Shown here one piece after another: positions 5,001-59,594 of a stretch of 64,000 nucleotides of DNA. The translations under genes and the position numbers were made by a program. The notes under the pieces were generated by a model that searched no databases, had not been told where the DNA came from, and saw nothing but the letters and a program-made list of their open reading frames with translations. This DNA is from Verrucomicrobiales bacterium. Lineage in GTDB: Bacteria > Verrucomicrobiota > Verrucomicrobiia > Verrucomicrobiales > SLCJ01. Each line of letters opens with the position of its first letter. The first letter of the stretch is position 1. The stretch is taken from the NCBI GenBank assembly GCA_046075565.1, contig JBJTQJ010000025.1, positions 32,001-96,000 on the forward strand, written 5' to 3'.

Positions 5001-8000
5001 ATGAACCGCCTCTTCCTCCTCCTTTTGGCCGCCCTTTTGGCAACGGCGCTTTATTTCGGACAGACCTCCGGTTCGTCCGGCTTTGGAAATGTCGCTCCCA
5101 GTGGCGATGGGACCAACCCGGAGGGAGCAACGCCCGCCACACCCGAGGCCAGAGCTGCCGAAACCCGACCTGTTTTGGCAGAACCCACCAACCAAACGGC
5201 CCCTGTCGAAGAGCGCGCCGGAACGAAAGAAATCCCGGTCTCAGCGGCCCGTGAACGAGACCAGGCAGGAAAACCGGTTCCGCTTATGCCTGTCCGCTTC
5301 TCCTTTGGCGACCGTCCCGGCGCGCCAGAACTCGCCTTGGCCATGGATGAATATGTCCGCCGGGAGGAAGATGGCAGCCAACACTTGGAAAAGCTCGATC
5401 CCCCCGCGACTCCGGAGACCATGGCCGGACGGCTTGCCGCCATCGGCAACGGCAACACCATCATGCCGGTCGCTTATCCGGTCGAGGGCCCGAAGACGAC
5501 AGCTACCCGACGGCTTGTCACACCGGACATCCGGCTCCAGGCGACTGATGCGGCCACGACCAACCTCTCCGCCAAATACCAACTGCAGAGATTGTCCAGT
5601 CCCGCTCTCACCGGCGACGAAAGGTTGCTGCGGGCCCACGACCCGCTTACCGCACTATCCATCACCGGTGAACTGCGCGAGGAAGGCAAAGACGCCCGTG
5701 TTGTTCTCGCGGCCACACGTTTCAAGCGTGCCCTGCCCAACGACCCGCTCGTCACCAACCAATGGCACATCAAAAAAATCGCTGCTTCTACCGCGGGCAC
5801 GGATGTGAATATCGAATCGGCGTGGAATTATCCTGGCACCGGGATCCGCGGCACCGGTGTGCGCATCGGGATCGTGGATGATGGGGTCCAGACCGGCCAC
5901 CCCGACTTCGTCGGAAACATCGACACGACCAATGACAAAGATTGGGTCGGCAATGACAATGATCCCAATCCCGAAACGGGAGACGACCATGGAACGGCCT
6001 GTGCCGGCAATGCCGCCGCACGGGGCAACAACTCCATCGGGGTCACGGGCACCGCCCCCGAGGCCACCATTGTCGGACTCCGCCTCCTCGGTGCCTCCAC
6101 CACGGATATTCAGGAAGCCGAAGCGATGTTGCATCGGAATGACATCATCTCGATCAAGAGCAACAGTTGGGGTCCGGCAGATGATGGTTTGACGCTTGAA
6201 GCCCCGGGCCCCGATACCCTCGCGGCATTCCAAACCGCCACGACCAGCGGGCGCGGCGGACGAGGGACCATCTTGGTTTTCTCCGCAGGCAACGGAGGAC
6301 TGGAAGGCGACAACTCGAACAAGGACGGTTACGCGAATTCGATTTACACCATTGCCGTGGGAGCCATCAACAGCCAAGGCATCTATTCGGGCTACAGCGA
6401 ACGTGGAGCCAATCTCGCGGTCTGCGCGCCATCAGATGATGACGCGACAACCCTCGCCATCACCACCACCGACCGCACGGGCGCCAATGGATATAACACG
6501 GCGGCATCGGCGAGCGGAGGTGATTACACCACCAACAACGAAGCAACGGGCTTCGGCGGCACCTCTTCGTCCGCGCCGACGGTCGCTGGGATTATTGCTC
6601 TTATGCTCCAGCAAAACCCGAATCTCGGCTGGCGCGACGTGAAAGAAATCCTCATGCGATCGGCGGTGAAGATCGACCCGACCGACGGGGAGTGGATCAT
6701 CAATGCTTCGGGGATGCGCTTCAACCACAACTATGGAGCCGGACTTGTCGATGCCTCGGCTGCCGTTGCCCTTGCCGCCGCATGGACGAATCTCGGCACG
6801 GCCACCAGCACCGTGTCCAGTCAAACCAGTCTCTCTGTCGCCATTCCCGACAACAACTCCACAGGCATCACCCGCACCTTCAATCTTTCCTCCACCAGCC
6901 TGCGTGTCGAACACGTCACCTTGAAACTGAACATCAACCATACGGCCCGCGGTGACCTCGACCTCCGCCTGATCTCACCTTCCGGAACCGAAAGTCAACT
7001 CGCCGAAGTTCATGGTGATGCTGGAGCCAACTACGCGAACTGGACATTTTCCACGGTCCGTAACTGGGGCGAGGCCTCCACCGGGACATGGACACTGAGG
7101 ATCTCGGATCGTTCCGCTACCAACATTGGCACTCTCACCTCCGCCGTGCTCACGGTGTATGGATCCAATGGCAACCTGCCGCCGAAAATCACCGCCGCTT
7201 CCCTATCCGCCACCGGCAATGCCTTTGCCGATCAAGCCCTGAGTGTCGCGTCGATCACGGCCACGGACCCTGAGAATTCGCCTCTCACCTACGCTTACCG
7301 GTGGGAATCCAGCACCGATGGCGTGACCTACGCCGCAAACGGACCAACCACCGCTTCTCTTCCTGCGAACGCCGCCAATGCCGCCAAACTCTGGCGTTGT
7401 CTCATCACCCCTTCGGATGGCTCGGCCATCGGCGCACCCTTCACCACAGCAGCGGTCAACCTCTTGGCCCGTCCGCCGGCCTCTGCCAAACCGGGCGCCG
7501 CTTTCATCTACACCAGTGGCCTCGTGCTCCGCGCCGCCACAGCAGCGGCACCTCGCCCGGCGATCATCAATGAATTCAGCCAAGGGCCAAGCGGAGGGAG
7601 CAGCGAATGGATCGAAATTCTGACCCTCGAGCCAACCAGCCTCGCCTTCTGGGATCTGACCGAAAGCAACGGACAAACTCTCGTCTTCGCCGATTCCCCG
7701 GTCTGGGATGATTTACCGGCCGGCACCTTGATCGTTGTTTATAACGGTGGAGCAACCAAGGCCCCGGTTCTTCCCGCCGATGACTTCGATCCCGCCGACG
7801 GCAAGATGGTAATCTCCAGCACCAACGCCACCTATTTCGATAACACTTACAACACCTGGATTTCTCTCGGCAATACCGGCGGTGACGCCATCAACCTCAA
7901 TGACTCCAGTGGGGTTCAGGTTGATTCGATATCTTATGGCACCAACACCACCGGCACGCCCCAGTTGGCTATTGTCGGGTCCGCGAAATCGGCCCAGTTC

Positions 8001-8705
8001 AACGGGAATACTTCGGCCGCTGCCGACTTGCTGGCGAACTGGACTGTCGTCAATGAAAACACCGCCACACCCGGCCAGCCGAATGGCGGTGCGAACACCA
8101 CGTGGGTCAACTCCCTGCGCTTGCCGCCAATCGCTCCTTTCCGCATCGGCGCCGGCTCCAACGTTCCTTCCGCACTCAGCCTCAACACGACCACCGGTGT
8201 GCTCTCCGGCACCATCGGTTCCGGGGTAACGCTAGGGAATTACCTCATTATCATCGAACGCACGAATGATCTCGGCGAGATTGTATCCCAATCCTTTACA
8301 TTGGAGATCACCAACGCGAATACTTATGCCCAATGGATTGCCGGGTATCCCGGACTCGCCAGCACGAACGAAACCGCCGATCCAGAAAAAGACGGTCTGC
8401 CGAATCTGGTGGAATTCTTGCTCCATAACCAGCATCCTGGTGTATCCGACTCCGGTTCGGCCGTGACTCTTTCCAGTTCTGGCGGACAACTCCGCCTCAC
8501 GTGGCGCGAATCAAAAAATACCGTGGGGGCGGTTCTTGAGCCGCAGTGGTCGCCGGACCTCAAAGCCACGACCTGGCAAACGACTGGCATCACCCTCCAG
8601 ACCTTGGAGGACCTGTCGACCAACCGGCTTCGCCAAGCGAGCTTGCCCATCGATCCTGTTTTCCCAAAACGCTTCCTCCGGTTGCGCGCACGGACTACGC
8701 CGTAG
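5001..8705 (+). CDS. Secreted S8 (kexin/furin-like) serine protease with P domain, lamin-tail-like and Ig-like domains
   Basis: Signal MNRLFLLLLAALLA; catalytic IVDDG, HGTACAG, GNGG and GTSSSAP; P domain (VEHVTLKLNINHTARGDL...WGEASTGTWTL); IINEF...EWIEI lamin-tail start; C-terminal ADPEKDGLPNLVEF...FLRLR domain. Confidence 0.9.
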   Translation: MNRLFLLLLAALLATALYFGQTSGSSGFGNVAPSGDGTNPEGATPATPEARAAETRPVLAEPTNQTAPVEERAGTKEIPVSAARERDQAGKPVPLMPVRFSFGDRPGAPELALAMDEYVRREEDGSQHLEKLDPPATPETMAGRLAAIGNGNTIMPVAYPVEGPKTTATRRLVTPDIRLQATDAATTNLSAKYQLQRLSSPALTGDERLLRAHDPLTALSITGELREEGKDARVVLAATRFKRALPNDPLVTNQWHIKKIAASTAGTDVNIESAWNYPGTGIRGTGVRIGIVDDGVQTGHPDFVGNIDTTNDKDWVGNDNDPNPETGDDHGTACAGNAAARGNNSIGVTGTAPEATIVGLRLLGASTTDIQEAEAMLHRNDIISIKSNSWGPADDGLTLEAPGPDTLAAFQTATTSGRGGRGTILVFSAGNGGLEGDNSNKDGYANSIYTIAVGAINSQGIYSGYSERGANLAVCAPSDDDATTLAITTTDRTGANGYNTAASASGGDYTTNNEATGFGGTSSSAPTVAGIIALMLQQNPNLGWRDVKEILMRSAVKIDPTDGEWIINASGMRFNHNYGAGLVDASAAVALAAAWTNLGTATSTVSSQTSLSVAIPDNNSTGITRTFNLSSTSLRVEHVTLKLNINHTARGDLDLRLISPSGTESQLAEVHGDAGANYANWTFSTVRNWGEASTGTWTLRISDRSATNIGTLTSAVLTVYGSNGNLPPKITAASLSATGNAFADQALSVASITATDPENSPLTYAYRWESSTDGVTYAANGPTTASLPANAANAAKLWRCLITPSDGSAIGAPFTTAAVNLLARPPASAKPGAAFIYTSGLVLRAATAAAPRPAIINEFSQGPSGGSSEWIEILTLEPTSLAFWDLTESNGQTLVFADSPVWDDLPAGTLIVVYNGGATKAPVLPADDFDPADGKMVISSTNATYFDNTYNTWISLGNTGGDAINLNDSSGVQVDSISYGTNTTGTPQLAIVGSAKSAQFNGNTSAAADLLANWTVVNENTATPGQPNGGANTTWVNSLRLPPIAPFRIGAGSNVPSALSLNTTTGVLSGTIGSGVTLGNYLIIIERTNDLGEIVSQSFTLEITNANTYAQWIAGYPGLASTNETADPEKDGLPNLVEFLLHNQHPGVSDSGSAVTLSSSGGQLRLTWRESKNTVGAVLEPQWSPDLKATTWQTTGITLQTLEDLSTNRLRQASLPIDPVFPKRFLRLRARTTP

Positions 8706-8864
8706 GCTTGCAAGAGAATTGGAACCACCCGGGCGTCGCGAATGGTCAAGGTGTTGGAAGTCCGGTCCTCAGTAACCCGGCAAACGTGTTTGCACAGTGC
8801 CCGCTTAGGACTGCGCCGACAACCTGTCGGCTATAGCCCGAAGGGCGAATCGGGAAAAAGTTTC

Positions 8865-8889
8865 CGGCGGTCACAGACGCACCGCTACA
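8865..8889 (-). repeat. GTAG-type REP-like palindrome
   Basis: Minus strand TGTAGCGGTGCGTCTGTGACCGCCG: GTAG followed by an imperfect hairpin; between convergent genes. Confidence 0.55.
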
Positions 8890-8913
8890 ATGTTGGCTTG
8901 GGCCGTGGCCATG

Positions 8914-9028
8914 TTGGAGTGCGCCGGCAGAGGCAGCGTCAGCGACCATCGACGGCGCTTTCCGGGGGAGAGACGTCCCTTCACCAAAGCGGTGTGGCGT
9001 TCGTCCCTCACTTCCCACCGCACTCCCA
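8914..9028. repeat. GGAG-type REP/REPIN-like inverted repeat element
   Basis: GGAGTGCG...CGCACTCC terminal inverted repeats with an internal CGCTTT/AAAGCG pair. Confidence 0.55.
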
Positions 9029-10950: not shown

Positions 10951-11844
10951 TTAGCTGATGGCCATCTGGGCGGTGGTGATTTCGAGAAGCTCGTTGGTGA
11001 TGGCGGCCTGGCGGAGCTTGTTGTATTCGAGAGTGAGATCCTTGACGATGCCTTTGGCGTTGTCGGTGGCGCTCTTCATGGCGACCATCCGGCTCGAGTG
11101 TTCGGCGGCCCGCGATTCCAGCATCATCTGGAAAAGCAGGTAATCCACGTAGAGCGGGAGCAACTGCTCGAAAACCGTCGGGCGGTCGGGTTCGAAAAGA
11201 TAATCGGAATACACGGCGGCTTCCGGGCCCAACGGTTCCGGAACACCGGCCATGCCATCATAGTCGCGCTTTTCACCGACCTGGCTCGCATCGAGCGGCA
11301 GGAGTTGGGTGATGGTGGCGTGGTTGACGAGGGTGTTGACGAAATTGGTAAAGGCGACCTTCACCACGTCGATTTCCCCATCGAGGAATTTCTGCACGGC
11401 GAACTTGGCGACGCGCTTCACTTCGTTGAAGTGCACCGGGTCGCGCACTTGGAAGTCGGCGAGCAGATCCTTCTTCAACTTGGAAATGGCATTGCGGCCC
11501 TTGGCGCCGACACTCACATAGGAAGCGTCGGACGGGGCTTCGCGCAAGAGCTTGCGGAGCAGGTTCGTGTTCAGGCCGCCGCAAAGTCCCTTGTCGGTGG
11601 TGATGACGATGATCAACTCGCGTTTGCCCTCGCGTTCGACGAGCAACGGATGACCGCTGTTCTGCGCTTCTTCCTTGAGGTTGCGCAGAAGCGCCTCGAG
11701 GTGTTGCGCGTAAGCGCGGCTGGCCAACGCTTGGTCCTGCGCTTTCTTCATCTTCGAAGCCGCGACCAACTGCATCGCCCGGGTGATCTGGGCGGTGTTC
11801 TTGATCGACTTGATGCGTCGGCGGATGTCGCGGAGGTTGGCCAT
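10951..11844 (-). CDS. atpG: ATP synthase F1 gamma
   Basis: IKSIKNTAQITRAM, DKGLCGGLN, YNKLRQAAITNEL. Confidence 0.98.
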   Translation of the reverse strand: MANLRDIRRRIKSIKNTAQITRAMQLVAASKMKKAQDQALASRAYAQHLEALLRNLKEEAQNSGHPLLVEREGKRELIIVITTDKGLCGGLNTNLLRKLLREAPSDASYVSVGAKGRNAISKLKKDLLADFQVRDPVHFNEVKRVAKFAVQKFLDGEIDVVKVAFTNFVNTLVNHATITQLLPLDASQVGEKRDYDGMAGVPEPLGPEAAVYSDYLFEPDRPTVFEQLLPLYVDYLLFQMMLESRAAEHSSRMVAMKSATDNAKGIVKDLTLEYNKLRQAAITNELLEITTAQMAIS

Positions 11845-11881
11845 GGCGGTGGTTGGCGGAAGAAGATGCGCGCGGCGTTAC

Positions 11882-13423
11882 TCAGCTCCAGGTGCTCTTG
11901 AAGTCCTGGATGGCGGACTTGAGCGCTTCGACGGTGTCCTTGTCCTTCTTGAGGTCGGGCTTCTCGTCGGCGATCTTCTGGAGTAGATCGACCTTGCGGT
12001 TCTTGAAGTAGTCTCCCAGTTTGCCTTGGAATTCGCGCACGCGGTTGACCGGCACATCGTCGAAGTAACCGTTCATCATCGCGAAGAGGAAGACACCTTC
12101 CAATTCCATCGGGAAAGGGGAATACTGCGCCTGCTTGAACATCTCGACGATGCGCTGGCCGCGCTGAATTTTCTTCTTCGTCGCTTCGTCGAGGTCGGAA
12201 CCGAACTGGGCGAAGGCCTGCAATTCACGGAACTGGGCGAGGTCGAGTTTCGTCGTGCCCGACACCGACTTGATGGTCTTCGTCTGGGCGGCGGAACCGA
12301 CGCGGGAAACGGAAAGACCGACGGAAATCGCGGGACGGATACCTTGATAGAAAAGGTCGGTTTCCAGATAGATCTGACCGTCGGTGATGGAAATCACGTT
12401 CGTCGGAATGTAAGCGGAAACGTCGCCGGCTTGCGTCTCGATGATCGGCAAAGCGGTCAAGGAACCACCACCAGCTTCTTCACTCAGACGAGCGGAACGC
12501 TCGAGCAACTTGGAGTGGAGGTAGAACACGTCACCCGGATAGGCTTCGCGACCGGACGGGCGGCGGAGCACCAGCGACACCTGGCGGTAGGCCACGGCGT
12601 GTTTGGAAAGGTCATCAAAAACGATGAGGGCATCCATGCCATTGTCCATGAACCATTCGCCAACGGCAGCACCGGCGTAAGGAGCCATGTATTGCATGGT
12701 GGCGGAGTCGGAGGCGGAAGCGCTCACCACGACGGTGTAGGGCATGGCGCCGGCTTCCTCGAGGGTGGCGACGATACGCGCGACGTTGGCGTTCTTCTGA
12801 CCGATGGCAACGTAGATGCAATACAGCGGCTTGTGGTCCTTCAGACGGCCTTCTTCGGCGGCCTTGTTCTGGCGGGCCTGGGCGATGATGGTGTCCACGG
12901 CGATGGTGGTCTTGCCGGTGGAGCGGTCACCGATGATCAGCTCGCGTTGTCCGCGGCCGACGGGAATCATCGCGTCGATGGCCATGATGCCGGTCTGCAC
13001 GGGCACGGAAACGGATTTCCGCTTGATGATCCCGGGCGCGATCTTTTCCATCGGATAGAAAGCTTCGTTCTTCAGGTCGCCTTTGCCGTCCAGCGGTTGG
13101 CCGAGCGCGTTGACAACGCGGCCGAGCAGGCCTTTGCCAACCGGCATTTCCAGAAGACGTCCGGTGGTTTTCACCTCGTCGCCTTCGTTAATCTTGTTGC
13201 CATCGCCGAAGAGAATGACCCCGACGCTGGTTTCCTCGAGGTTGAGGGCCAGACCGGTGACCCCGTGAGGGAACTCGATCATTTCGTTGAGCTGGACGTC
13301 GCTCAAGCCTTCGACTTTGGCCACGCCGTCGCCGATTTCGCGCACAACACCGACATTGGTGCGGGTGGCGGATGTTTTCAGTCCGGCGATTTGGGATTCA
13401 AGTTCCTGCAGGATGGTGCTCAT
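11882..13423 (-). CDS. atpA: ATP synthase F1 alpha
   Basis: [31 protein letters not shown]. Confidence 0.99.
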
Positions 13424-48188: not shown

Positions 48189-48230
48189 GGCATCTTCGCA
48201 TCAATCTTTTTGATGTCAAGACATCAAAAA
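48189..48230 (-). promoter_or_regulatory. VapBC promoter/operator
   Basis: Perfect IR TTTTTGATGTC-AA-GACATCAAAAA (48207-48230) containing TTGACA on the minus strand; further GATGC half-sites up to the ATG. Confidence 0.75.
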
Positions 48231-48323: not shown

Positions 48324-48836
48324 ATGATTCCGCAGCATTATCCCATTGAAGACGGAAAACTTTATGGCGGGGAGTATCCCGCCGATAGGGATCCGAAAGT
48401 CGCAAGAGAACGCCTGTGGCCACTGGTCACTCTGGGCATCCGCACCTTCATTGACCTCACAAGCCCCGCTGACCGCATGGCTCCCTATGAAGCGATTCTC
48501 GGGGAATTGGAGAAAGAAGCCGGATGTCATCTCCGCCGGATATCCGTGCCGATTGTGGACATGGGGATCCCCGAGAACAGCACGACGACGAAAACGATTC
48601 TTCAACATGTGAACGATTGTAAAATCCACGCTCCGGCTGTCTATGTGCATTGTTGGGGCGGGATCGGTCGCACTGGCACGGTCGTCGGCTGTTGGCTCAG
48701 GGAATGTGGTTATGATCCGGAAGCCGCCTTGGCCCGTGTCCAGCACCTGTATGCCACGAACATGCCGAAAGTCCGCTTTCACCCGGAATCACCGCAGACG
48801 CCCGCGCAGAAGGATTACATCCGGAAGTGGTCGTAG
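48324..48836 (+). CDS. Dual-specificity/tyrosine phosphatase family protein
   Basis: CX5R loop VHCWGGIGRTG; GGEYP and SPQTPAQ motifs. Confidence 0.88.
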   Translation: MIPQHYPIEDGKLYGGEYPADRDPKVARERLWPLVTLGIRTFIDLTSPADRMAPYEAILGELEKEAGCHLRRISVPIVDMGIPENSTTTKTILQHVNDCKIHAPAVYVHCWGGIGRTGTVVGCWLRECGYDPEAALARVQHLYATNMPKVRFHPESPQTPAQKDYIRKWS

Positions 48837-51468: not shown

Positions 51469-51969
51469 TCACCTCTTCCCGCTGATCGGTCTTCTCGATT
51501 CGACAAGCAATCGTGAACGCCGGTCACGGCGGAGGGTGAACCGTTCGCGCAGGACACCGCGGGGTTTGTCTCCATGTTCGACCTCGATGGTGACCATCAT
51601 GGGGAGGGCCTGGAAAGAAAGCACCCGGAAGAGAGGCGTGCGACGGGACCGGAGGAAGCAATGGAAAGGCACATCCTCATGGCGGGCATTCCAGAGGAAA
51701 CCCGAAGGCGGAAAGTCGGATTCCTCGGAGAGGGCGGCGAAGGTTTCCCGCAGGATTTCCTCACCGTGTTCGCGCGCGAGTTTGGCGGCCTCGCGGCGGT
51801 TGAGGGCTTCTTCGATGGCGGCGGCGGGTCCGAGCCGGCGCGACTCGGCGATTTCGACGAGCAGGAACCGGGCGTGCGCGTCGATGGCGGCATGCAACTC
51901 TCGCCGGCTGATTTTTCCCAAATCATACATCCGGAAGAGTTGGGCGGGGGTCGGCGGGGAGCGGAGCAT
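51469..51969 (-). CDS. Hypothetical protein (start may be 52002)
   Basis: Co-oriented ORF in the mpl cluster; no known motif. Confidence 0.65.
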   Translation of the reverse strand: MLRSPPTPAQLFRMYDLGKISRRELHAAIDAHARFLLVEIAESRRLGPAAAIEEALNRREAAKLAREHGEEILRETFAALSEESDFPPSGFLWNARHEDVPFHCFLRSRRTPLFRVLSFQALPMMVTIEVEHGDKPRGVLRERFTLRRDRRSRLLVESRRPISGKR

Positions 51970-51994
51970 CACGGCGGCGACAACAATACGCGGT

Positions 51995-52774
51995 TCAGGC
52001 ATCCATGGCGCTTTCGACGGCGCGAACAAACGCGGCCTGCGCGAGCACGCGGCGGTAGAGCGAAAACTCCGAGGGCGTCTCGAAGGTCAGCACTTGCCAG
52101 GCCCAATGGGTGTAAAGGGAAAAGGCCTCCGGCCATCCATCCATCCGGGGCAAGGCGGCGCGGCGAATCAATCCATCCTCGGCGGCCCGGCCTTCGATAA
52201 CGTGGCGCGGATCATTCGGGATGTGCACGGTGGCGGCATCCATTGTCTCGCGTGCGAAGGCGCGGCGTCTGCGCCGGTAGAGTTCATAACAATAGTTGCC
52301 GCGCGCGTCGAAATCCTCGTGCAGACAAACGGCGGTGTGGAACCAGCCTTCCGGGGTGTAACGCTCAAGCACACGTTCCCAGCGACGCACCAACGCGGGC
52401 ATGGGGCTGGTGAAGGTCCGGTTCAGATCGCGGCCCCGGCGATCCTCGCGGCGATTGTGGACGAGACCCCATGGATTGAGGCAGGGAAAAATGAGCAACG
52501 GACGCTTCTGGCAGGCGAGGCGCAGGCGCGCCCATTCGATCAGGCCCCACACCGATGCCGGTTCGTCGCCGTGAATGCCCGCGCTCAGGTAGAGGCCGGG
52601 CTGGTCTGGATCACCCTCCTTGGCCACCCAGATCACGGGAAAACCACCATCGGCGGCGAAGACTCCGATCTCAGCGCCCGCGTCGGAGGCCAGCACGCGC
52701 CATGCTTCAACCACGCCGCGATAGTCATGCGCGCGGTGGCGGGCGAGAAAATGATCTTCTTTGCGGGCGGGCAT
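51995..52774 (-). CDS. M14-family metallocarboxypeptidase (MpaA/AstE-like)
   Basis: SAGIHGDEP, NPWG, DLNR, LHED, TFETP; 12 nt downstream of mpl. Confidence 0.85.
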   Translation of the reverse strand: MPARKEDHFLARHRAHDYRGVVEAWRVLASDAGAEIGVFAADGGFPVIWVAKEGDPDQPGLYLSAGIHGDEPASVWGLIEWARLRLACQKRPLLIFPCLNPWGLVHNRREDRRGRDLNRTFTSPMPALVRRWERVLERYTPEGWFHTAVCLHEDFDARGNYCYELYRRRRRAFARETMDAATVHIPNDPRHVIEGRAAEDGLIRRAALPRMDGWPEAFSLYTHWAWQVLTFETPSEFSLYRRVLAQAAFVRAVESAMDA

Positions 52775-52786
52775 GCGATGGAAAAA

Positions 52787-54172
52787 TCAGAGACGCGCGA
52801 GCAGCTTGCCGTGGATACCACCGAAGCCGCCATTGCTGAGGACAAGCAAGACATCCCCATCGCGGGCAGCGGGCGCGACGCGCTCGACGATGGCATCAGC
52901 TCCACCCTCCAGCCAAGCCGGAATGCCGCGTATGGAAATCGATTCCACAAGGGCTCCGGGATCGAGGCGTTCGTCCTCCGGCACCTTGCCCGGATCCTCG
53001 ACACGCGATATCACGGCGAGGTCTGCTCCTGCCACGGCATCGGCCAATTCGTTTTGGAAGACCTTGCGGCGGGTCGTGTTCGAACGCGGCTCGAAGATGG
53101 CCCACAACCGAGAACCAGGAAAACGCTGCCGCATGCTCGCGATGGACAGACGAATGGCGGTCGGATGATGGGCGAAATCATCGATCACCGAGACGCCATT
53201 TTTCACGCCGCGCAATTCCTGGCGTCGACCGACGCCATTGAATCCATCAAGAGCTTCTTGGATCTGCACATCGGTCAATCCCGCGTGCCTCGCGGCGGCG
53301 GCGGCCATGGCGGCATTCCGGATGTTGAATTCGCCATCCATGGGCACGGTGAAGACGGCTTCCCCGAGTCGGAAAGTTCCGCGTCCGGGCGCTGCTTCGT
53401 TCATGATGATGCGGTCGGTATTGTTTTCCCCGAAGCCGACCGATCGCACGGGAGCCGGGGACTGGGCCGTGACTTCGAGGCAGTTGGCGTCGTCGCCATT
53501 GATGATGACCAGTCCCCCGCGCGGAACAACGCGCAGCAGACGCGAGAAGGTCAGTTTGACATCATCGATGGATTTATAAATATCGACGTGATCGAACTCG
53601 ATGTTGTTCATCACGACCACTTCCGGCAGGTAGTGGAGGAACTTCGAGCGTTTGTCGAAGAACGCGGTGTCGTATTCATCGCCCTCGAGCACTGTCCATG
53701 GTGAGTCGGTGAAACGCGCGCCCATGCCGAAGTTGCGCGGCATGCCACCGATGAGGAAACCCGGCTCACGCCCGGCATGCTCGAACATCCACGCCAGCAT
53801 GCTCGTGGTCGTTGTCTTTCCGTGTGTGCCGCAGACCACGTAGTTGTGTTTGCCAATCAGGAAAAACCTCCGCAGCGCCTCCGGTAGCGATAGGTAGTCC
53901 ATTTTCCGATCCAGCATGGCCTCGACTTCCGGATTGCCGCGGCTGAGCGCGTTGCCAACCACCACCAGAGTGCCTTCGGGCGGAAGATTGGCCGGGTCAT
54001 AGCCATCAAACAACCGGATGCCCGTGGTGCGCAGGAAATCCGACATGGGGGGATAACATTGGGCGTCGGACCCCGTGACTTGCCAGCCCCGGCGGGCCAT
54101 GGCCGCCGCCACGGCCCCCATGGCCGTGCCGCAGACCCCGATAAAATGAATGGCGTTCGCGCCGTTTTGCAT
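52787..54172 (-). CDS. mpl: Murein peptide ligase
   Basis: HFIGVCGTAMG, YPPMS, GTHGKTTT, EGDEYDTAFFDKRSKF, DDFAHHP, FEPRSNT, SNGGFGG. Confidence 0.95.
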   Translation of the reverse strand: MQNGANAIHFIGVCGTAMGAVAAAMARRGWQVTGSDAQCYPPMSDFLRTTGIRLFDGYDPANLPPEGTLVVVGNALSRGNPEVEAMLDRKMDYLSLPEALRRFFLIGKHNYVVCGTHGKTTTTSMLAWMFEHAGREPGFLIGGMPRNFGMGARFTDSPWTVLEGDEYDTAFFDKRSKFLHYLPEVVVMNNIEFDHVDIYKSIDDVKLTFSRLLRVVPRGGLVIINGDDANCLEVTAQSPAPVRSVGFGENNTDRIIMNEAAPGRGTFRLGEAVFTVPMDGEFNIRNAAMAAAAARHAGLTDVQIQEALDGFNGVGRRQELRGVKNGVSVIDDFAHHPTAIRLSIASMRQRFPGSRLWAIFEPRSNTTRRKVFQNELADAVAGADLAVISRVEDPGKVPEDERLDPGALVESISIRGIPAWLEGGADAIVERVAPAARDGDVLLVLSNGGFGGIHGKLLARL

Positions 54173-54324
54173 GCCCGGTATTCAAACCCCGGCAAGGCCC
54201 ACCGGCAAGGGGAAAGGCGGGGCTTGCCTAGGGTCACCACAAATAAACCGCATTTCCGGGCAGCCTGCCACTCGGCCCAGAAAGCAGATATTGATCCCAG
54301 GCGATTGCCAGCCATGCTTCGGCC

Positions 54325-55377
54325 ATGGCCATCCACATCATCGTGCCACCCGAAAGCCGCGAACGCGCGGAGGAGCTGCGCGGCCGATTGCTGGCCGGTA
54401 GCACCATACCCGGCGCCCGGCTATCGGAGAAGCTAGGCACCGGGCCACCACCGGGCGACACCCCCGATTTCCTGCTCCGGCTGATCGCAACAAAAATGCC
54501 GAGGATCTTCGCGGAAAGTGAAATCAGCGGTGATGGCAGCGACTGGACACAGGAAGAGCTTCGTTTGTTAGGCGATGTTTCGGTGGCCGTAGATACGACC
54601 ATCTTCGATGATGGCCGCCACCACTCGCCCCGTGTACATGAGAGGCGGTTCGGGGGCATGCTGGTTTTCACGCCGGGAGCGCTGTTGCGTGGCAATGGCA
54701 TTTCACCACCTTGCGATCTCGCTGAAGTAACCGACTCCGCCGGGAACTTGGACGAGGATGCATTCACCGGCCTTTACCTCCGCCGCCTCAGCCCGGTTTT
54801 CGATTTCATTCATCATCGTGCTCTCGCTTTTGGCCAACGCGCTCTCGTTACCATGCCGGGACTTGGCTGCGGGCAATTTGCCGGGCGATTTGCCGGGAGG
54901 CTCGGGGCCATGCTTGGTCGCGCCCTTCACCACATCCTTTTGGTGAATGCAGCTAAATGGCCTGGCCTCGGCGCTGTTTATTACGATCCCTATTCCGAGG
55001 GGAAGAACGAACGTCATCGTATCGGAGAGACGGACTTTCTCATCCGCCCCTTGTGCCATGGAAACGAAGACAAGCCGCAGCTTTGTCCGCCGGAAAGTTA
55101 TGCAGAAGCCGGAGATGATTTTTCCGGATTTCTTTTCCACGGCATCGTGGCATGGGACCATGTCTCCTGGCCCGGCAATGACTTCTGGGGAGGCGCTCGC
55201 GCGACGGATGACGGAGTCAAAGCCGCCGCGACCGATGTAATGAAATCCCTCACCGGAGTCGAAGGTTCCTACGATCCCGCGACCCATACCTACAAGCCAC
55301 CGGGTCCTTGGCGAACCTGGGAAGAAGTCGCCAGTGCACACCACCCGGAATGGTGGCGAACGAATCTAAACCCCTAA
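54325..55377 (+). CDS. Macrodomain-like protein, putative MavL-type ADP-ribosylhydrolase
   Basis: PRIFAES, PGLGCGQFAG and AWDHVSWPGNDFWGGARATDDGVKAA motifs; family recognised from memory. Confidence 0.7.
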   Translation: MAIHIIVPPESRERAEELRGRLLAGSTIPGARLSEKLGTGPPPGDTPDFLLRLIATKMPRIFAESEISGDGSDWTQEELRLLGDVSVAVDTTIFDDGRHHSPRVHERRFGGMLVFTPGALLRGNGISPPCDLAEVTDSAGNLDEDAFTGLYLRRLSPVFDFIHHRALAFGQRALVTMPGLGCGQFAGRFAGRLGAMLGRALHHILLVNAAKWPGLGAVYYDPYSEGKNERHRIGETDFLIRPLCHGNEDKPQLCPPESYAEAGDDFSGFLFHGIVAWDHVSWPGNDFWGGARATDDGVKAAATDVMKSLTGVEGSYDPATHTYKPPGPWRTWEEVASAHHPEWWRTNLNP

Positions 55378-55413: not shown

Positions 55414-58400
55414 TTACTCGAAGCGGCAAATGGCCTCAATTCCGGCGGCCGAGCCGTCGCGTAACCAGCCATCGAGTTGCGATTGATCCTTGAGTTGCTG
55501 GCCACGCGGGCGGGGCACGGCGAGGAAGCGGACTGCGGCATCGGGCAAAGTGGTCATGTCGCCCCAAAGCTTCTCGAACTGCGCCACCGGCAGGATGTCT
55601 TCTTGTCCATTGCCCCAGCGTTTCTTCACATCCTTAAGGGTCACATAAGTCGGCATACGTGCGGCCAGGGCCCGCACCCCGGCGGTCACGGCGTCGGCAT
55701 CACCGAGCGACGCTCGATCGAGTTCGAAGAGGGCGAGCATCCGGTCGATGTGGATCCAGTTGGTGGCAGAGTTATAAAAGGTGAGTTTGAATTCGTCGTC
55801 GTCGCGCGCCATGGCGAGTCCTTCGACCAAACGCAATTGCCCGTTGATGCGGGCGAGACCGCCGCCCCGGTCTTCGATGCGTCGGCGGATCACTTCGACA
55901 CTCAAGGCCGCGCCTTCGAGAATGTGGCGGCCGAAGACTGTCGGATCGAGGTTCGCGCCGAGCGTGTCGATGTTGTGCAATAACAAATGCTCGAGGCGCG
56001 GGTTTTCCTTCACCATCGCGGCGAGTGTGCCATTGAGCAGAAGATTGGCGATCTCATACCAATGCCCGACTGGGTGCAGGCATTGCAAGGGCACATTGTC
56101 GGTGTAATCGCTGGCTTCACCATTTTGAATCGCCCAGTCGATAAGCGCCTTTTGCAAGCTGCGCCGGTTTTTCTCCTTCTGCGGATCGAGCTGTTGGTGC
56201 GCGACTTCTTCAAAAGCAAAGCGCAGGTCACGCGCCGTCGGAACCATACGCAAGCCGATGGATCGCCCCGGCGAAAGGATAACCTGACCGCCGTAGCCGA
56301 ACTGCTCGTGTGTATCAAGGAACTCGCGGGTCGGCCCCTGCGTGAGGAAACTCGTGGTGAACACATGCGCCGGCAGACAGCCGTATTCCATGCCGATAGC
56401 CCGGCTCTTTGCCAAATGGGTCTCGAGGAAACTGCGGTGGCGGCCGGACAACTTCGCGAATGGATGCAAGGCCTTGACCGTGCCCGCGCCCTGGGTCCAG
56501 CGGCTCCCGGCTCCGGCGGCGAGTGTCACGACGGCAATCCGGCCTTCCGACAAGGCTTGCTCGCCGATGCGTTTGGCTTCCTCATCGGCATGGTAAAGTG
56601 AAACCACATCTCCCTCGCGCGCATCTTCCACGGTCGTGGTGACCGGCAATCGATTCTGGGCCAAGCCGATGCGCCCGGACCGCAGATCCTCGCGGATGCG
56701 TTCGTGCTGCACGGCATCAAATCCCTGTGCGGCCAACAACTCGGCGAGGTTGCCCTGTGGTTCGCCGCCTTTGCGTTCGGCGGGCGGGAAAATCCGGTGG
56801 ATCAACGGGCCAACCAACGGGCGTTCACCCGCCATGAGGCTGCGTTCGGCGAAAGCATCCATCTCCTGGCGCGTTGTCGCCTTGAGCGTGCGCGGATCCT
56901 GGCGAAGCCAACGCGGCACCATCATCAGATAATACTCCGAAGACAACATGGCTTCACTGCCAGTTAGGAGAACGGAGGTCGATCCATTCTCATTGATGGT
57001 GAAATCATAGACCACAGGATCCATGGCGAAAGGCAATGCATTCTCCAGTTCACCTTTGCTGCGCCGCATGATTTCCAGAATGGCGGCGCGGGCCGATGCC
57101 TTTTGCGCGGGATCAACCCAGAAGCCCATGCCGCCGCCGGACATGCCCCCGAGCATGACGAAACCACGGAAGGCGTCGCCGAGCGCTTCCTTCGCGCGTG
57201 CGATGAGCCATTCGGTGTAAGCGTTGCTCGCCCACGGGATGATGGCTTGCAGCGGACCGAAGAAATTGCGGGTGGTGAGTTCGGCCACACGATCCACTTC
57301 ACCTGCTTGCAAGGCATTGACGATCCCATGCAGGATTTGCTGCGCTTCCAATCGTGCCTCCCACTCCTTTTCCAGTTTGAGCAGGTATTTCTCCGTCACC
57401 ATCTCGAGAATGGGGCCGACATTCTGCGACATCCCGCCGTGCACGAGGATCAAGCTGTCCTGCAATTGCTGGCGCGTTTCCGGAGAAATGCGATCCTGCC
57501 CAAACAAAGTATGGCGTGGCAACAAACGGCCGCGGCTGATACCGCATTCGGTATCACCATCAACCGCCGCCTCGCCTTGGATCAACTTGATGCCCGGCCA
57601 GACCCCGCCGGAGTCCTGCCATCCGCCGCCAGAACCACCCAGCCATTCGCCAAGAATGGCGCGGCTCGCGATGGTGCGGCGTTCATCTTCGCTCAGTCCG
57701 CCGGTCAGGCTTTCCGTCTGCCCGCTTGCCCGCATACAGAGCGCGATGAGGCATCCTAACAAATTGGTCGACACCGCCAGGCGCGAACCCTTCGGGATAT
57801 CGCGCACCTGGGAAACAATTTCCAGGCCCTTGCCGGGTCCGCAGAGCGCGGCCAGCACATCCGACAAGGCATGACCAGAGCCCTCCATGGCTGATGGGAT
57901 GATGCCGGAGGCAATGACGGCCGCCTTGAGCAGCCCGAGGTAATCCTTGGCAAAGTCGAACAAATCATCCAGCGAATCGACATCGGCAATGGCCCCGAGA
58001 TCGACGCTGGCCAACCGCAGCACTGGCTCATCGATCACGCGCAGGTAAGCACCGACCGGCGGCAAGGTCGAGGTATCGCGACCGTGCACACCGAGATCGA
58101 CGGAGATATTGAGCACCTTGGCTCCCTCCGGATAATCCATGCCAAGGAAAAAGATATCCGACCAAGCGGCATGACTCAGGTCCATACGCACCGAGGTTTG
58201 CTCGCGCAGCACCGGATACACGCCGTGTGCGCCGCCGCTTTGCAAAAGCTCCGGGCGCAGGCGCAAGGGATAGTCGGAAGGATGCCCGGTGCGGAACATC
58301 CATTGGTTTCCCTTCACCTTGCGCACGGTTTTCTGCACCTGCTGGGCGAGAGTCTTGAATGCCAATCCATGATAGGCGGAGGCCAGCGCGCTGCTGAGCG

Positions 58401-58731
58401 GGTCACTCGCTCCTTGGATGCGCTGGTGCTCCAGATAAACAGAAATGGCTTCCTCGAACCGCCGCGAGAGGCAAAGCTCGTGGCCTTCGTAAGGAATGGT
58501 CCCGGTGGTGTCGGCCGGATAATGAGGAGGCAAAAAATATCGATGGATCGCTTCGAGGAAAAAGATGGCGCGGACGCGATGATAGAAGTTTCCCGCTTCG
58601 AGGCGGAAAGACTCGAAGGCGTCGGCCATCGCCTCCAAACCGGATCGATCCGACGATCGACAGAGGGCTTCGAATGATATCCCGTCGGCGGCGTTTCCTT
58701 CCACCAGGGATTGCAGGCGTGGGTCCAACAT
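55414..58731 (-). CDS. GHMP sugar kinase fused to a UDPGP-family pyrophosphorylase
   Basis: VRMDL, PKGSRLAVS, GGGWQD, GGMSGGG (GHMP/fucokinase-like); LAAGAGSRW...K, PVGH, HNIDTL, GGGL, QFEK, LK (UDPGP/UAP-like). Confidence 0.8.
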   Translation of the reverse strand: MLDPRLQSLVEGNAADGISFEALCRSSDRSGLEAMADAFESFRLEAGNFYHRVRAIFFLEAIHRYFLPPHYPADTTGTIPYEGHELCLSRRFEEAISVYLEHQRIQGASDPLSSALASAYHGLAFKTLAQQVQKTVRKVKGNQWMFRTGHPSDYPLRLRPELLQSGGAHGVYPVLREQTSVRMDLSHAAWSDIFFLGMDYPEGAKVLNISVDLGVHGRDTSTLPPVGAYLRVIDEPVLRLASVDLGAIADVDSLDDLFDFAKDYLGLLKAAVIASGIIPSAMEGSGHALSDVLAALCGPGKGLEIVSQVRDIPKGSRLAVSTNLLGCLIALCMRASGQTESLTGGLSEDERRTIASRAILGEWLGGSGGGWQDSGGVWPGIKLIQGEAAVDGDTECGISRGRLLPRHTLFGQDRISPETRQQLQDSLILVHGGMSQNVGPILEMVTEKYLLKLEKEWEARLEAQQILHGIVNALQAGEVDRVAELTTRNFFGPLQAIIPWASNAYTEWLIARAKEALGDAFRGFVMLGGMSGGGMGFWVDPAQKASARAAILEIMRRSKGELENALPFAMDPVVYDFTINENGSTSVLLTGSEAMLSSEYYLMMVPRWLRQDPRTLKATTRQEMDAFAERSLMAGERPLVGPLIHRIFPPAERKGGEPQGNLAELLAAQGFDAVQHERIREDLRSGRIGLAQNRLPVTTTVEDAREGDVVSLYHADEEAKRIGEQALSEGRIAVVTLAAGAGSRWTQGAGTVKALHPFAKLSGRHRSFLETHLAKSRAIGMEYGCLPAHVFTTSFLTQGPTREFLDTHEQFGYGGQVILSPGRSIGLRMVPTARDLRFAFEEVAHQQLDPQKEKNRRSLQKALIDWAIQNGEASDYTDNVPLQCLHPVGHWYEIANLLLNGTLAAMVKENPRLEHLLLHNIDTLGANLDPTVFGRHILEGAALSVEVIRRRIEDRGGGLARINGQLRLVEGLAMARDDDEFKLTFYNSATNWIHIDRMLALFELDRASLGDADAVTAGVRALAARMPTYVTLKDVKKRWGNGQEDILPVAQFEKLWGDMTTLPDAAVRFLAVPRPRGQQLKDQSQLDGWLRDGSAAGIEAICRFE

Positions 58732-58745
58732 GATTCCGGAGTGGG

Positions 58746-59594
58746 TTAGCGGCGGGCGGCGTCGAGGGAAAGTTCTTCGGCGAGTATGGCGAGCAACTCG
58801 GCCCGCGCAGGGCCGGCCAAGCCCAGCGCCAATTGGGCGCGCAAGACCCCGAAGCGTGCCTCCAGGTCAGCCCGTCTTCCGCGCAATTCCGCCGCCAGGT
58901 ATTTTTCCCGCGAGGCAAGGCGTGCGAGCGCCGGGGTGAGTCCGGCTTTTCCATCTTTGGCTCGCGCCGCTTCTTCTTCTAACAAGGTGAAGATGCTCGG
59001 TCCGAGCACGTGCATGCCGAAAAAGCAGAGGTAAAATCCGCTCCGCAATCCCGGGACGACACATGATTGTTCGGCCAGCGTCGGGGTCGGCTTCTCATAG
59101 ACATTCTCCACCGTGTAGAGGCCGGACCGACCGGGGCACAGCAATCCCGCCACCGTGCCATAGTAGCGCAACTGGCTCTCGTGCGTGGCTTGCACCGCCG
59201 AGACCGAACAATCCTGCTCGGCAGCGATCTCCAGCAACTGCCGGGTGCAACTCGCCTCGACTTCGCTCACATAAAGATGGTCGCTCACTTGCAGCAGGAA
59301 AGGTTTGCCGGCGGTGAAATCCTTGCCGCAAAGCACCGCCTGGCCATAGCCGGAAGGTTTCGCCTGCTCGATGAGGGTGACTTTTCCCCCGAATCCGGAG
59401 AGAAGCTGCTCGTAGGCGGCCCGCTCCGATGGCTTCACCACCACCCCGGCTTTTTCAATCCCGGCCGAGAACAGTTCCTCCAACTGGATGACCATGGCCG
59501 CCTTCCAATCGCCCTGGCGATCATTCAGGTTCTGCATGGGCAGGCGGCGGGAATCCGGACCGGCGGCGGTGATAAGGGCATGTTTAGCTTTCAT
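58746..59594 (-). CDS. Sugar-phosphate nucleotidyltransferase (GalU/GalF-like)
   Basis: ALITAAG, EELFSAGIE, QAKPSGYGQAV, VYEKP, LTPAL. Confidence 0.8.
   Translation of the reverse strand: MKAKHALITAAGPDSRRLPMQNLNDRQGDWKAAMVIQLEELFSAGIEKAGVVVKPSERAAYEQLLSGFGGKVTLIEQAKPSGYGQAVLCGKDFTAGKPFLLQVSDHLYVSEVEASCTRQLLEIAAEQDCSVSAVQATHESQLRYYGTVAGLLCPGRSGLYTVENVYEKPTPTLAEQSCVVPGLRSGFYLCFFGMHVLGPSIFTLLEEEAARAKDGKAGLTPALARLASREKYLAAELRGRRADLEARFGVLRAQLALGLAGPARAELLAILAEELSLDAARR

Follow-up and report, generated by a model that had tools for sequence, protein, structure and literature searches.

We found that the open reading frame (ORF) at positions 54325 to 55377 on the plus strand of a 64,000-nucleotide stretch of Verrucomicrobiales DNA (the window) encodes a protein of 350 amino acids (aa) that belongs to the MavL family of macrodomains and that, judged from its sequence, is very probably an active hydrolase of ADP-ribosylated arginine. 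Taken as a whole, we lean towards the view that it is a MavL-type arginine ADP-ribosylhydrolase acting as a repair eraser without an ADP-ribosyltransferase (ART), or writer, of its own. The role contained in this view, that it clears foreign or accidental arginine ADP-ribosylation rather than forming one half of a dedicated writer-eraser switch, is put forward more tentatively. The gene and its three signature segments are as follows:

54325..55377, + strand: MavL-family gene; 350-aa single-domain macrodomain, predicted arginine-specific mono-ADP-ribosylhydrolase (basis: PF24754, Protein Data Bank (PDB) matches, AlphaFold2 model and Foldseek)
54493..54519, + strand: loop K57-S65 (KMPRIFAES); F62 and E64 align with MavL F105 and E107 (arginine positioning)
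54856..54879, + strand: diphosphate-binding loop P178-F185 (PGLGCGQF), corresponding to MavL P220-F227, with F185 at F227
55150..55227, + strand: catalytic loop and following segment A276-A301 (AWDHVSWPGNDFWGGARATDDGVKAA); D278, N285 and D286 correspond to MavL D315, N322 and D323

Family identity, fold and active site

A profile search placed the protein in the Pfam family MavL (PF24754) with 379.3 bits against a cut-off of 27 (E 1.6e-113), residues 5-327 aligning with model positions 3-323 of 325, a match well outside what chance would give; no NCBIfam model was found for it, and the PF16062 (DUF4804) model gave no match even at E<=1. The PDB sequence search matched six distinct sequences, all of them Legionella pneumophila MavL chains (E 6e-60 to 7e-59, residues 2-328). 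Modelling with AlphaFold2, for which 20 homologs of 49-76% identity were aligned, gave a mean predicted local distance difference test (pLDDT) of 84.4 and a predicted template modelling (TM) score (pTM) of 0.88, and Foldseek listed MavL chains in ranks 1-15 (TM 0.85-0.87, E ~1e-30, ~35% identity). The next listed row (rank 17) was Drosophila CG3568, followed by CG2909 and Legionella Larg1 (TM 0.45-0.59) and then by unrelated folds with E above 0.01. The macrodomain fold and the likeness to MavL, which a first-pass annotation of this DNA had proposed from the motifs, are thus borne out by family membership, by the PDB chains, by the top Foldseek ranks and, as described below, by a one-to-one match of the residues studied by mutagenesis. 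The same annotation had reported no signal peptide; this fits an N-terminus that is folded into the domain (strand 3-6 and helix 9-23, a block with pLDDT 85-95), although no signal-peptide predictor was run.

Residues were mapped by alignment to the MavL chain 8xep_A, whose numbering is that of native MavL, as verified by counting to F105 and E107. The three motifs quoted in the first-pass annotation are present at residues 57-65, 178-185 and 276-301, the last of them reading D278-x6-N285-D286-x7-T294-D295-D296, in which T294, D295 and D296 correspond to MavL T331, D332 and D333. Furthermore, MavL H142 corresponds to H99, G221-F227 to G179-F185, and P264 and Y265 to P222 and Y223. The published catalytic-loop motif of the MavL class, WDxx[S/A]xPGN[D/E][F/Y][F/W/Y] (PMC10951314), is satisfied by WDHVSWPGNDFW (W277 to W288), and the published diphosphate-loop motif, [V/I/L]xGxGxGx[F/W/Y] (PMC10951314), reads M177-P-G-L-G-C-G-Q-F185 here, with the three glycines and the aromatic residue kept. 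The sole deviation from these motifs is M for V/I/L at the first diphosphate position, a column that holds V, I, L or M in the 20 homologs.

In MavL, the distal ribose is bound by D315, N322, D323 and D333 and closed off on one side by F227, and F105, E107, D323 and T331 position the arginine; most activity is lost in the D315A, D323A, D333A and F227A mutants, and the loss in F105 and E107 mutants is noticeable (PMC10951314, PMC11251166). The catalytic aspartates and asparagine align without exception, D278, N285, D286 and D296 standing at the positions of D315, N322, D323 and D333. F62, E64, H99, G179, G181, G183, F185, D278, N285, D286, T294, D295 and D296, all of which align with MavL residues that bind ADP-ribose or arginine, were invariant in 20 of 20 homologs. 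The protein departs from MavL at K236, T224 and C226, which are replaced by G194, C182 and Q184, and of these C182 and G194 are invariant in the 20 homologs. A published comparison of apo, ADP-ribose-bound and ADP-ribosyl-ubiquitin-bound MavL describes a pocket that is kept open and reports that C226 and Q330 hinder the binding of ubiquitin to apo-MavL (PMC11251166). Given the membership in PF24754, the structural match to MavL and the retention of all residues found relevant by mutagenesis, the window protein is very probably an arginine-specific mono-ADP-ribosylhydrolase.

Macrodomains include readers, and the glycine in place of MavL K236 would suit a protein that binds ADP-ribose and is catalytically dead. 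We consider such a reader very unlikely, as the three catalytic aspartates, N285, F185, F62 and E64 are all kept and invariant across the homologs, and as the invariance of G194 within the environmental clade marks it as a feature of this clade rather than a sign of decay.

MavL itself (Lpg2526 of L. pneumophila; 8DMP, 8DMR, 8IPJ, 8XEP, 6OMI) shares with the window protein the Pfam family, ~35% identity over the core, both signature motifs and the ADP-ribose- and arginine-binding residues known from mutagenesis or structure. It differs in carrying residues 1-41 and ~70 C-terminal residues that are missing here, where the protein ends 22 residues past the aligned core. Within Legionella, MavL is found only in L. 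pneumophila and L. quateirensis, most homologs start at MavL M41, and the C-terminus of MavL bears a proposed translocation motif, the E-block (PMC8699189, available passages); no run of three glutamates was found in the window protein. As both terminal extensions are missing, the protein is not a translocated effector of the Legionella type, although no search aimed at secretion genes was made, and the host task of MavL, recycling of ADP-ribosyl-ubiquitin, cannot apply in a bacterium without ubiquitin. Of the three roles that the first-pass annotation had offered (immunity to phage or interbacterial toxins, an endogenous circuit, action on a eukaryotic host), the last is the least likely. A secreted effector that acts on ADP-ribosylated proteins of a eukaryotic host, as MavL does on ubiquitin, could be argued from the homology to a Dot/Icm effector, from the fact that some long homologs have ankyrin repeats or belong to Legionella-like or Berkiella-like organisms, and from a homolog on a Piscirickettsia plasmid. 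We judge it highly improbable, given the missing termini, a modelled N-terminus in which no signal peptide is evident, homologs in cyanobacteria, Chloroflexota, sulfate reducers, methanotrophs and others, and the detection of the window DNA in freshwater metagenome runs.

Other known erasers are more distant. The DUF4804/MavL-like class (PF16062; CG2909, CG3568 and Larg1/Lpg0081) shares the macrodomain class and arginine-specific removal of mono-ADP-ribose (PMC10951314), and its members CG2909, CG3568 and Larg1 are remote from the window protein (10-14% identity at the TM values given above). DraG, ARH1 and Tri1 of the ARH/DraG family (PF03747) catalyse the same reaction, release of ADP-ribose from arginine (PMC10951314, and a review), but with an unrelated fold and a metal-dependent mechanism. 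The MacroD-, PARG- and TARG1/DarG-type macrodomains (PF01661 and relatives) share the superfold and the binding of ADP-ribose but act mainly on O-linked or thymine-linked ADP-ribose, and the MavL class lacks their signature motifs (PMC10951314).

Occurrence, writers and a phosphatase partner

The family is large and widely scattered. A word-indexed search of 5.8 billion clusters, with 8000 candidates scored, gave at least 1423 homologous clusters at E<=0.001, with PF24754 in all of the best 120 and a closest relative that is 76% identical; phmmer against 1.84 billion representatives at 50% identity gave 512, 398 and 192 proteins at E<=1e-3, 1e-10 and 1e-30, respectively. When one genome per species was scanned by pattern, at least 244 genomic stretches from many phyla were confirmed, and the best 80 of these loci were used for the taxonomic counts (taxa by record title) and for the survey of neighbourhoods. 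The 80 comprise 17 Verrucomicrobiota, 15 Chloroflexota, 8 Desulfobacterota-type, 7 cyanobacteria, 7 labelled Gammaproteobacteria (mostly Methylococcales-type) and 6 Bacteroidota (mostly Aureispira), as well as Planctomycetota, spirochaetes, Acidobacteriota and others. A metagenome scan for close relatives found 12 loci, each at <=61% identity. Plasmids yielded 2 homologs in 72,556 records; homologs were seen on a Sphaerotilus plasmid (NZ_CP035707.1) and on the Piscirickettsia plasmid. In its own lineage the gene is rare, being present in 2 of 41 relatives and in 2 of 401 genomes of the phylum with the genome of the window counted in both, and no neighbouring gene is common to the window and the one gene-bearing relative.

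A few homologs stood out singly. The 465-aa homolog P0120 has an N-terminal extension that resembles a lipoprotein signal, the planctomycete-like record L066 holds two copies (7971-9017 and 11396-12409) 2.4 kb apart, and one Luteolibacter record set contributes two loci, L008 and L017.

The first-pass annotation was right that the gene resembles MavL outside Legionella, yet this is not new: homologs are publicly named 'Macrodomain effector MavL domain-containing protein' or 'DUF4804 domain-containing protein', and the occurrence of the wider class outside Legionella is already in print (PMC10951314). There is nothing out of the ordinary about the window gene, which belongs to a known family scattered in environmental bacteria.

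The genome of the window, 100% complete by marker genes and with one copy of the MavL-family gene, was searched with seven transferase models. Six of them (ART, ADPrib_exo_Tox, Enterotoxin_a, PARP, ART-PolyVal, Pertussis_S1) stayed without a match at E<=1, and DRAT gave only a 10-bit match (E 0.5). The statement of the first-pass annotation that the window has no ADP-ribosyltransferase therefore holds, also genome-wide, for the seven ART families searched. The genome lacks a match to the canonical Macro domain (PF01661) and contains one ARH-family gene, on a 2.7-kb contig without an informative neighbour. Homolog neighbourhoods, whose survey the same annotation had suggested, pointed in the same direction: 67 of the 80 loci have >=550 nt on both sides of the homolog, none of the 133 adjacent ORFs carries an ART domain, and no neighbour family is common to different phyla, the largest neighbour cluster comprising 8 loci, all Chloroflexota. 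Fusions were counted in the 66 homologs with more than 613 residues: 39 are fused to an ARH domain (PF03747), the commonest fusion partner (the few named ones are spirochaetes), and none to a transferase. In the spirochaete records L067 (1796-3856) and L068 (1457-3736) the ARH domain lies N-terminal to the MavL homolog, and an NrtR-type NUDIX regulator lies 10 nt upstream of the L067 fusion; in a cyanobacterium (L075:9091-9882) the ARH is split off, just downstream of the MavL homolog.

The survey also revealed a partner, which is encoded in the window as well:

48324..48836, + strand: Cys-based dual-specificity/PTP-type phosphatase, 170 aa, HCWGGIGRTG (Pfam PTP-SAK, Tc-R-P, PTP-NADK)

The ORF called mechanically begins with TTG at 48210, whereas homologs begin at M39, which is position 48324. 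Between the phosphatase gene and the MavL-family gene, 5.5 kb further downstream, lie four minus-strand genes, and the phosphatase is 62-70% identical to phosphatases adjacent to MavL homologs. The survey, completed by a tblastn scan, found it adjoining the homolog on the same strand at 6 of the 80 loci in full length (downstream in L003, upstream in L005, L010, L012, L023 and L053) and at 3 in part (L008, L019, L033), plus one plasmid. Eight of these nine cases fall within the 17 Verrucomicrobiota-labelled loci, the ninth being L033. In L008 (423-1652) the N-terminal ~70 residues of the phosphatase, without the catalytic Cys, run in frame into the MavL start, and L007 (7899-7952) retains an 18-residue C-terminal relic, a weak match (E 0.017); both look like decayed genes upstream of MavL homologs.

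The association is not a strict one. Of five further Verrucomicrobiota genomes with a MavL-family gene, four (L007, L013, L018, L020) have no adjacent copy, and three have a phosphatase anywhere (59%, 59% and 48% identity), adjacent in L010 and on other contigs in two; the one MavL-bearing relative of the window's genome is without it. The phosphatase model (pLDDT 87.9) is nearest in fold to DUSP23/VHZ and the archaeal SsoPTP, no NCBIfam model was found for it, and a predicted complex of the two proteins scored 0.00, which carries no weight either way. The available literature passages on MavL mention neither a phosphatase partner nor an ARH fusion, and nothing relevant was found in the literature on the DSP-PTPase and 'Swiss Army Knife' phosphatase families; in contrast to MavL, no SidE-type system is implied for the window protein. 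The term orphan eraser, used in the first-pass annotation, thus holds as far as the seven ART families go, but the enzyme does not stand alone, in that a phosphatase that is its direct neighbour in relatives is encoded 5.5 kb upstream.

A repair eraser and its alternatives

In the mechanism that we propose, the cytoplasmic single-domain enzyme would take up a mono-ADP-ribosylated arginine side chain, with the diphosphate on the loop P178-F185, the adenine stacked between H99 and Y223, the distal ribose held by D278, N285, D296 and F185, and the arginine held by F62, E64, D286 and T294. By analogy with MavL, a water molecule that the alpha-phosphate has activated would attack C1'' of the arginine-linked ADP-ribose in a substrate-assisted manner, and, as suggested by the MavL structures, the enzyme would split the N-glycosidic bond that joins the guanidinium to the distal ribose, leaving ADP-ribose and unmodified arginine. 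The eraser may thereby clear arginines of the cell's own proteins that have been modified by foreign transferases (phage enzymes, competitors' toxins) or by side reactions.

That the enzyme acts as a repair eraser without its own writer is suggested by the rarity of this accessory gene, by the lack of a recognisable writer and by the link to the phosphatase, adjacent in relatives and 5.5 kb away here. The repair role is also in line with the finding that the commonest fusion partner is a second eraser, and with two precedents. MavL acts on several arginine-modified proteins, namely ubiquitin, ANT1 and actin (PMC11251166), and cleaves an arginine-ADP-ribosyl peptide but not Ser, Thr, Cys, His-mimetic or thymine substrates (PMC10951314). 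Tri1, an ARH-type hydrolase, is the immunity protein against the arginine-modifying interbacterial toxin Tre1, according to a review. Tri1 is encoded beside its toxin and also blocks it by binding, whereas the window gene has no toxin neighbour, being adjoined by mpl and a sugar kinase/nucleotidyltransferase gene, and is therefore not a cognate immunity gene.

Several observations weigh against this view of the enzyme and its role. A search of 50,697 phage records gave no homolog, and in the available literature passages members from free-living bacteria are described nowhere beyond one sentence on occurrence, with no experiment. The neighbours in the window (FtsK, mpl, sugar-nucleotide enzymes) are housekeeping genes; no PADLOC-DB 2.0 model matched the MavL-family protein or the phosphatase at E<=0.01, and PADLOC applied to 108 neighbour proteins gave generic domain-level matches only (helicases, ATPases, WYL, kinase) and no recurrent system. 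On the structural side, the least confident parts of the model are the C-terminal tail and residues 61-66 and 280-285, both substrate loops, and the ribose contact K236 of MavL is G194 here and in all 20 homologs. (The two stretches with pLDDT <50, encoded by 54505-54522 and 55162-55179, are the arginine-positioning and catalytic loops.) The phosphatase has no explained task in the proposed scheme. Of 40 relatives, 9 have a phosphatase homolog (<=51% identity) but no MavL gene, and in a phosphatase tree the clade (support 99/99) that holds all MavL-linked Verrucomicrobiota phosphatases includes two from genomes without a MavL gene. To these are added the limits of the writer search, from which divergent or undescribed ARTs would escape, and the sirtuins considered next.

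Some sirtuins ADP-ribosylate arginine according to a review, and the genome of the window encodes one. The enzyme could therefore be the eraser half of an endogenous circuit, in which the cell's own sirtuin or a divergent ART writes and the MavL-family enzyme, perhaps with the phosphatase, reverses the mark, as DraG does on nitrogenase. On the Sphaerotilus plasmid (L105:2641-8963) the genes run in the order WYL-WCX regulator, double AAA ATPase, SIR2, MavL homolog, phosphatase and 125-aa protein, so that SIR2 directly precedes the MavL homolog in what resembles a writer-eraser arrangement; the cluster is flanked by brxD and a DUF262 gene, and in L078 the MavL homolog is directly preceded by a homolog of the cluster's 125-aa protein (E 4e-19). 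A mycobacterial sirtuin auto-ADP-ribosylates arginine and DraT/DraG is the classic arginine switch (review), and an NrtR-type regulator or NUDIX gene beside the homologs L067 and L074 suggests a link to NAD/ADP-ribose homeostasis. Nevertheless, we regard such a circuit as unlikely, if the most serious of the rivals. No writer is common to the neighbourhoods of the 80 loci, DRAT was not found in the genome beyond the 10-bit match, and the window's genome shares with the plasmid cluster the MavL and phosphatase genes only. Its sirtuin lies on another contig than the MavL gene, is 27% identical to the plasmid SIR2 and is nearest to CobB-type deacylases in NCBIfam, with 293.6 bits, below the model cut-off of 318. 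Sirtuins occurred in 10 of 14 control genomes and the MavL gene in 2 of 41 relatives; as the former are nearly universal and the latter is rare, the two do not track.

The natural substrate might also be something other than a protein arginine, namely a different ADP-ribosyl adduct of guanidine-like or phosphate-linked type. Examples would be an ADP-ribosyl-guanine of DNA or RNA, a nucleic-acid end bearing ADP-ribose, or a free metabolite derived from NAD; the phosphatase would then process a phosphate on or next to the adduct. The phosphatase matches the nucleotide-context Pfam models PTP-SAK and PTP-NADK, the published substrate panel has no guanine adducts (PMC10951314), and several homologs lie beside repair genes such as SRAP, UDG, HhH-GPD, UvrD, SbcC, Y-family polymerase, RuvA and RtcB. 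On the other hand, the arginine-holding residues F62, E64, D286 and T294 are invariant, all four tested members of the wider class cut an arginine substrate only and not ADP-ribosyl-thymine DNA (PMC10951314), the phosphatase is nearest in fold to the ordinary protein phosphatases DUSP23 and SsoPTP, and the repair-type neighbours, 9 of 133 adjacent ORFs, are by a rough estimate not clearly above chance. We consider a non-protein substrate improbable.

Repair genes (the above types, RNase T and NERD helicase) were seen in adjacent ORFs of L003, L004, L007, L046, L057, L059, L069, L078 and L079, and within 8 kb in L019, L030 and L071. A DNA-damage regulon was considered on these grounds and rejected, since the same rough estimate judged their number not above expectation.

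The phosphatase leaves room for a variant of the repair reading, in which the two enzymes would form a self-contained repair module without a writer that also clears processed or phosphorylated marks, for example phosphoribosyl-arginine scars, 2'-phospho-ADP-ribosyl adducts or guanine adducts on nucleic acids. We hold this whole reading to be rather improbable; if true, it would match, in a free-living setting, the multi-step logic of ubiquitin repair in Legionella, and would be the ancestral job of the family before its recruitment as an effector.

Local setting and meaning for the family

The ORF 54325..55377 starts with ATG and is open throughout. Its frame extends upstream by only ~10 codons (to 360 aa) and the homologs in the 20-homolog alignment begin at the same position, so that the start appears sound. 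Two long antisense ORFs, 54234..54767 and 54703..55344, overlap the gene; we interpret these as shadow frames of G+C-rich coding DNA. The gene has a G+C content of 0.58-0.61 in surroundings of 0.56-0.66, within the local range and thus without a sign of recent transfer. Upstream of it lies:

54173..54324, no strand assigned: spacer of 152 nt between the divergent mpl and the MavL-family gene, presumed promoter region

Neither a sigma-70-like consensus site nor an inverted repeat was found in this spacer, and an Rfam search of the window gave no family. The divergent mpl (TIGR01081, above cut-off) is followed on the minus strand by a gene of the AstE/AspA fold with weak likeness to MpaA (MpaA-like amidase), a family-less 186-aa ORF (the three spanning 51469-54172) and ftsK; mpl and the AstE/AspA-fold gene have the look of a pair for recycling murein peptides. 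A gene for a 1105-aa protein (55414-58731, minus strand) runs convergently to the MavL-family gene; the protein has a fucokinase-like part (NF009948, at 80 bits well short of the cut-off) and a weak UDPGP-like part. Next to that gene lies a GalU/RmlA-like nucleotidyltransferase gene (58746-59594, minus strand), and the two resemble a sugar-activation pair of an unusual kind. The window DNA was present in four freshwater metagenome runs, all of one study; among the sequencing runs with window DNA there was no RNA run.

Study of the MavL family has been confined to one enzyme, a Legionella effector active inside host cells. The survey shows this effector to be the exception: the family is mostly found in free-living bacteria (Verrucomicrobiota, Chloroflexota, cyanobacteria, sulfate reducers, methanotrophs and others), where it is rare, patchy and without a neighbouring writer. 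The window gene adds no new type of system, and the interest lies in the role of the family outside pathogens rather than in this gene as such, with the phosphatase partner and the frequent ARH fusion as concrete experimental handles. Together, the data point to arginine ADP-ribosylation, whether self-inflicted or imposed by phages or competitors, as a recurring problem of environmental bacteria.

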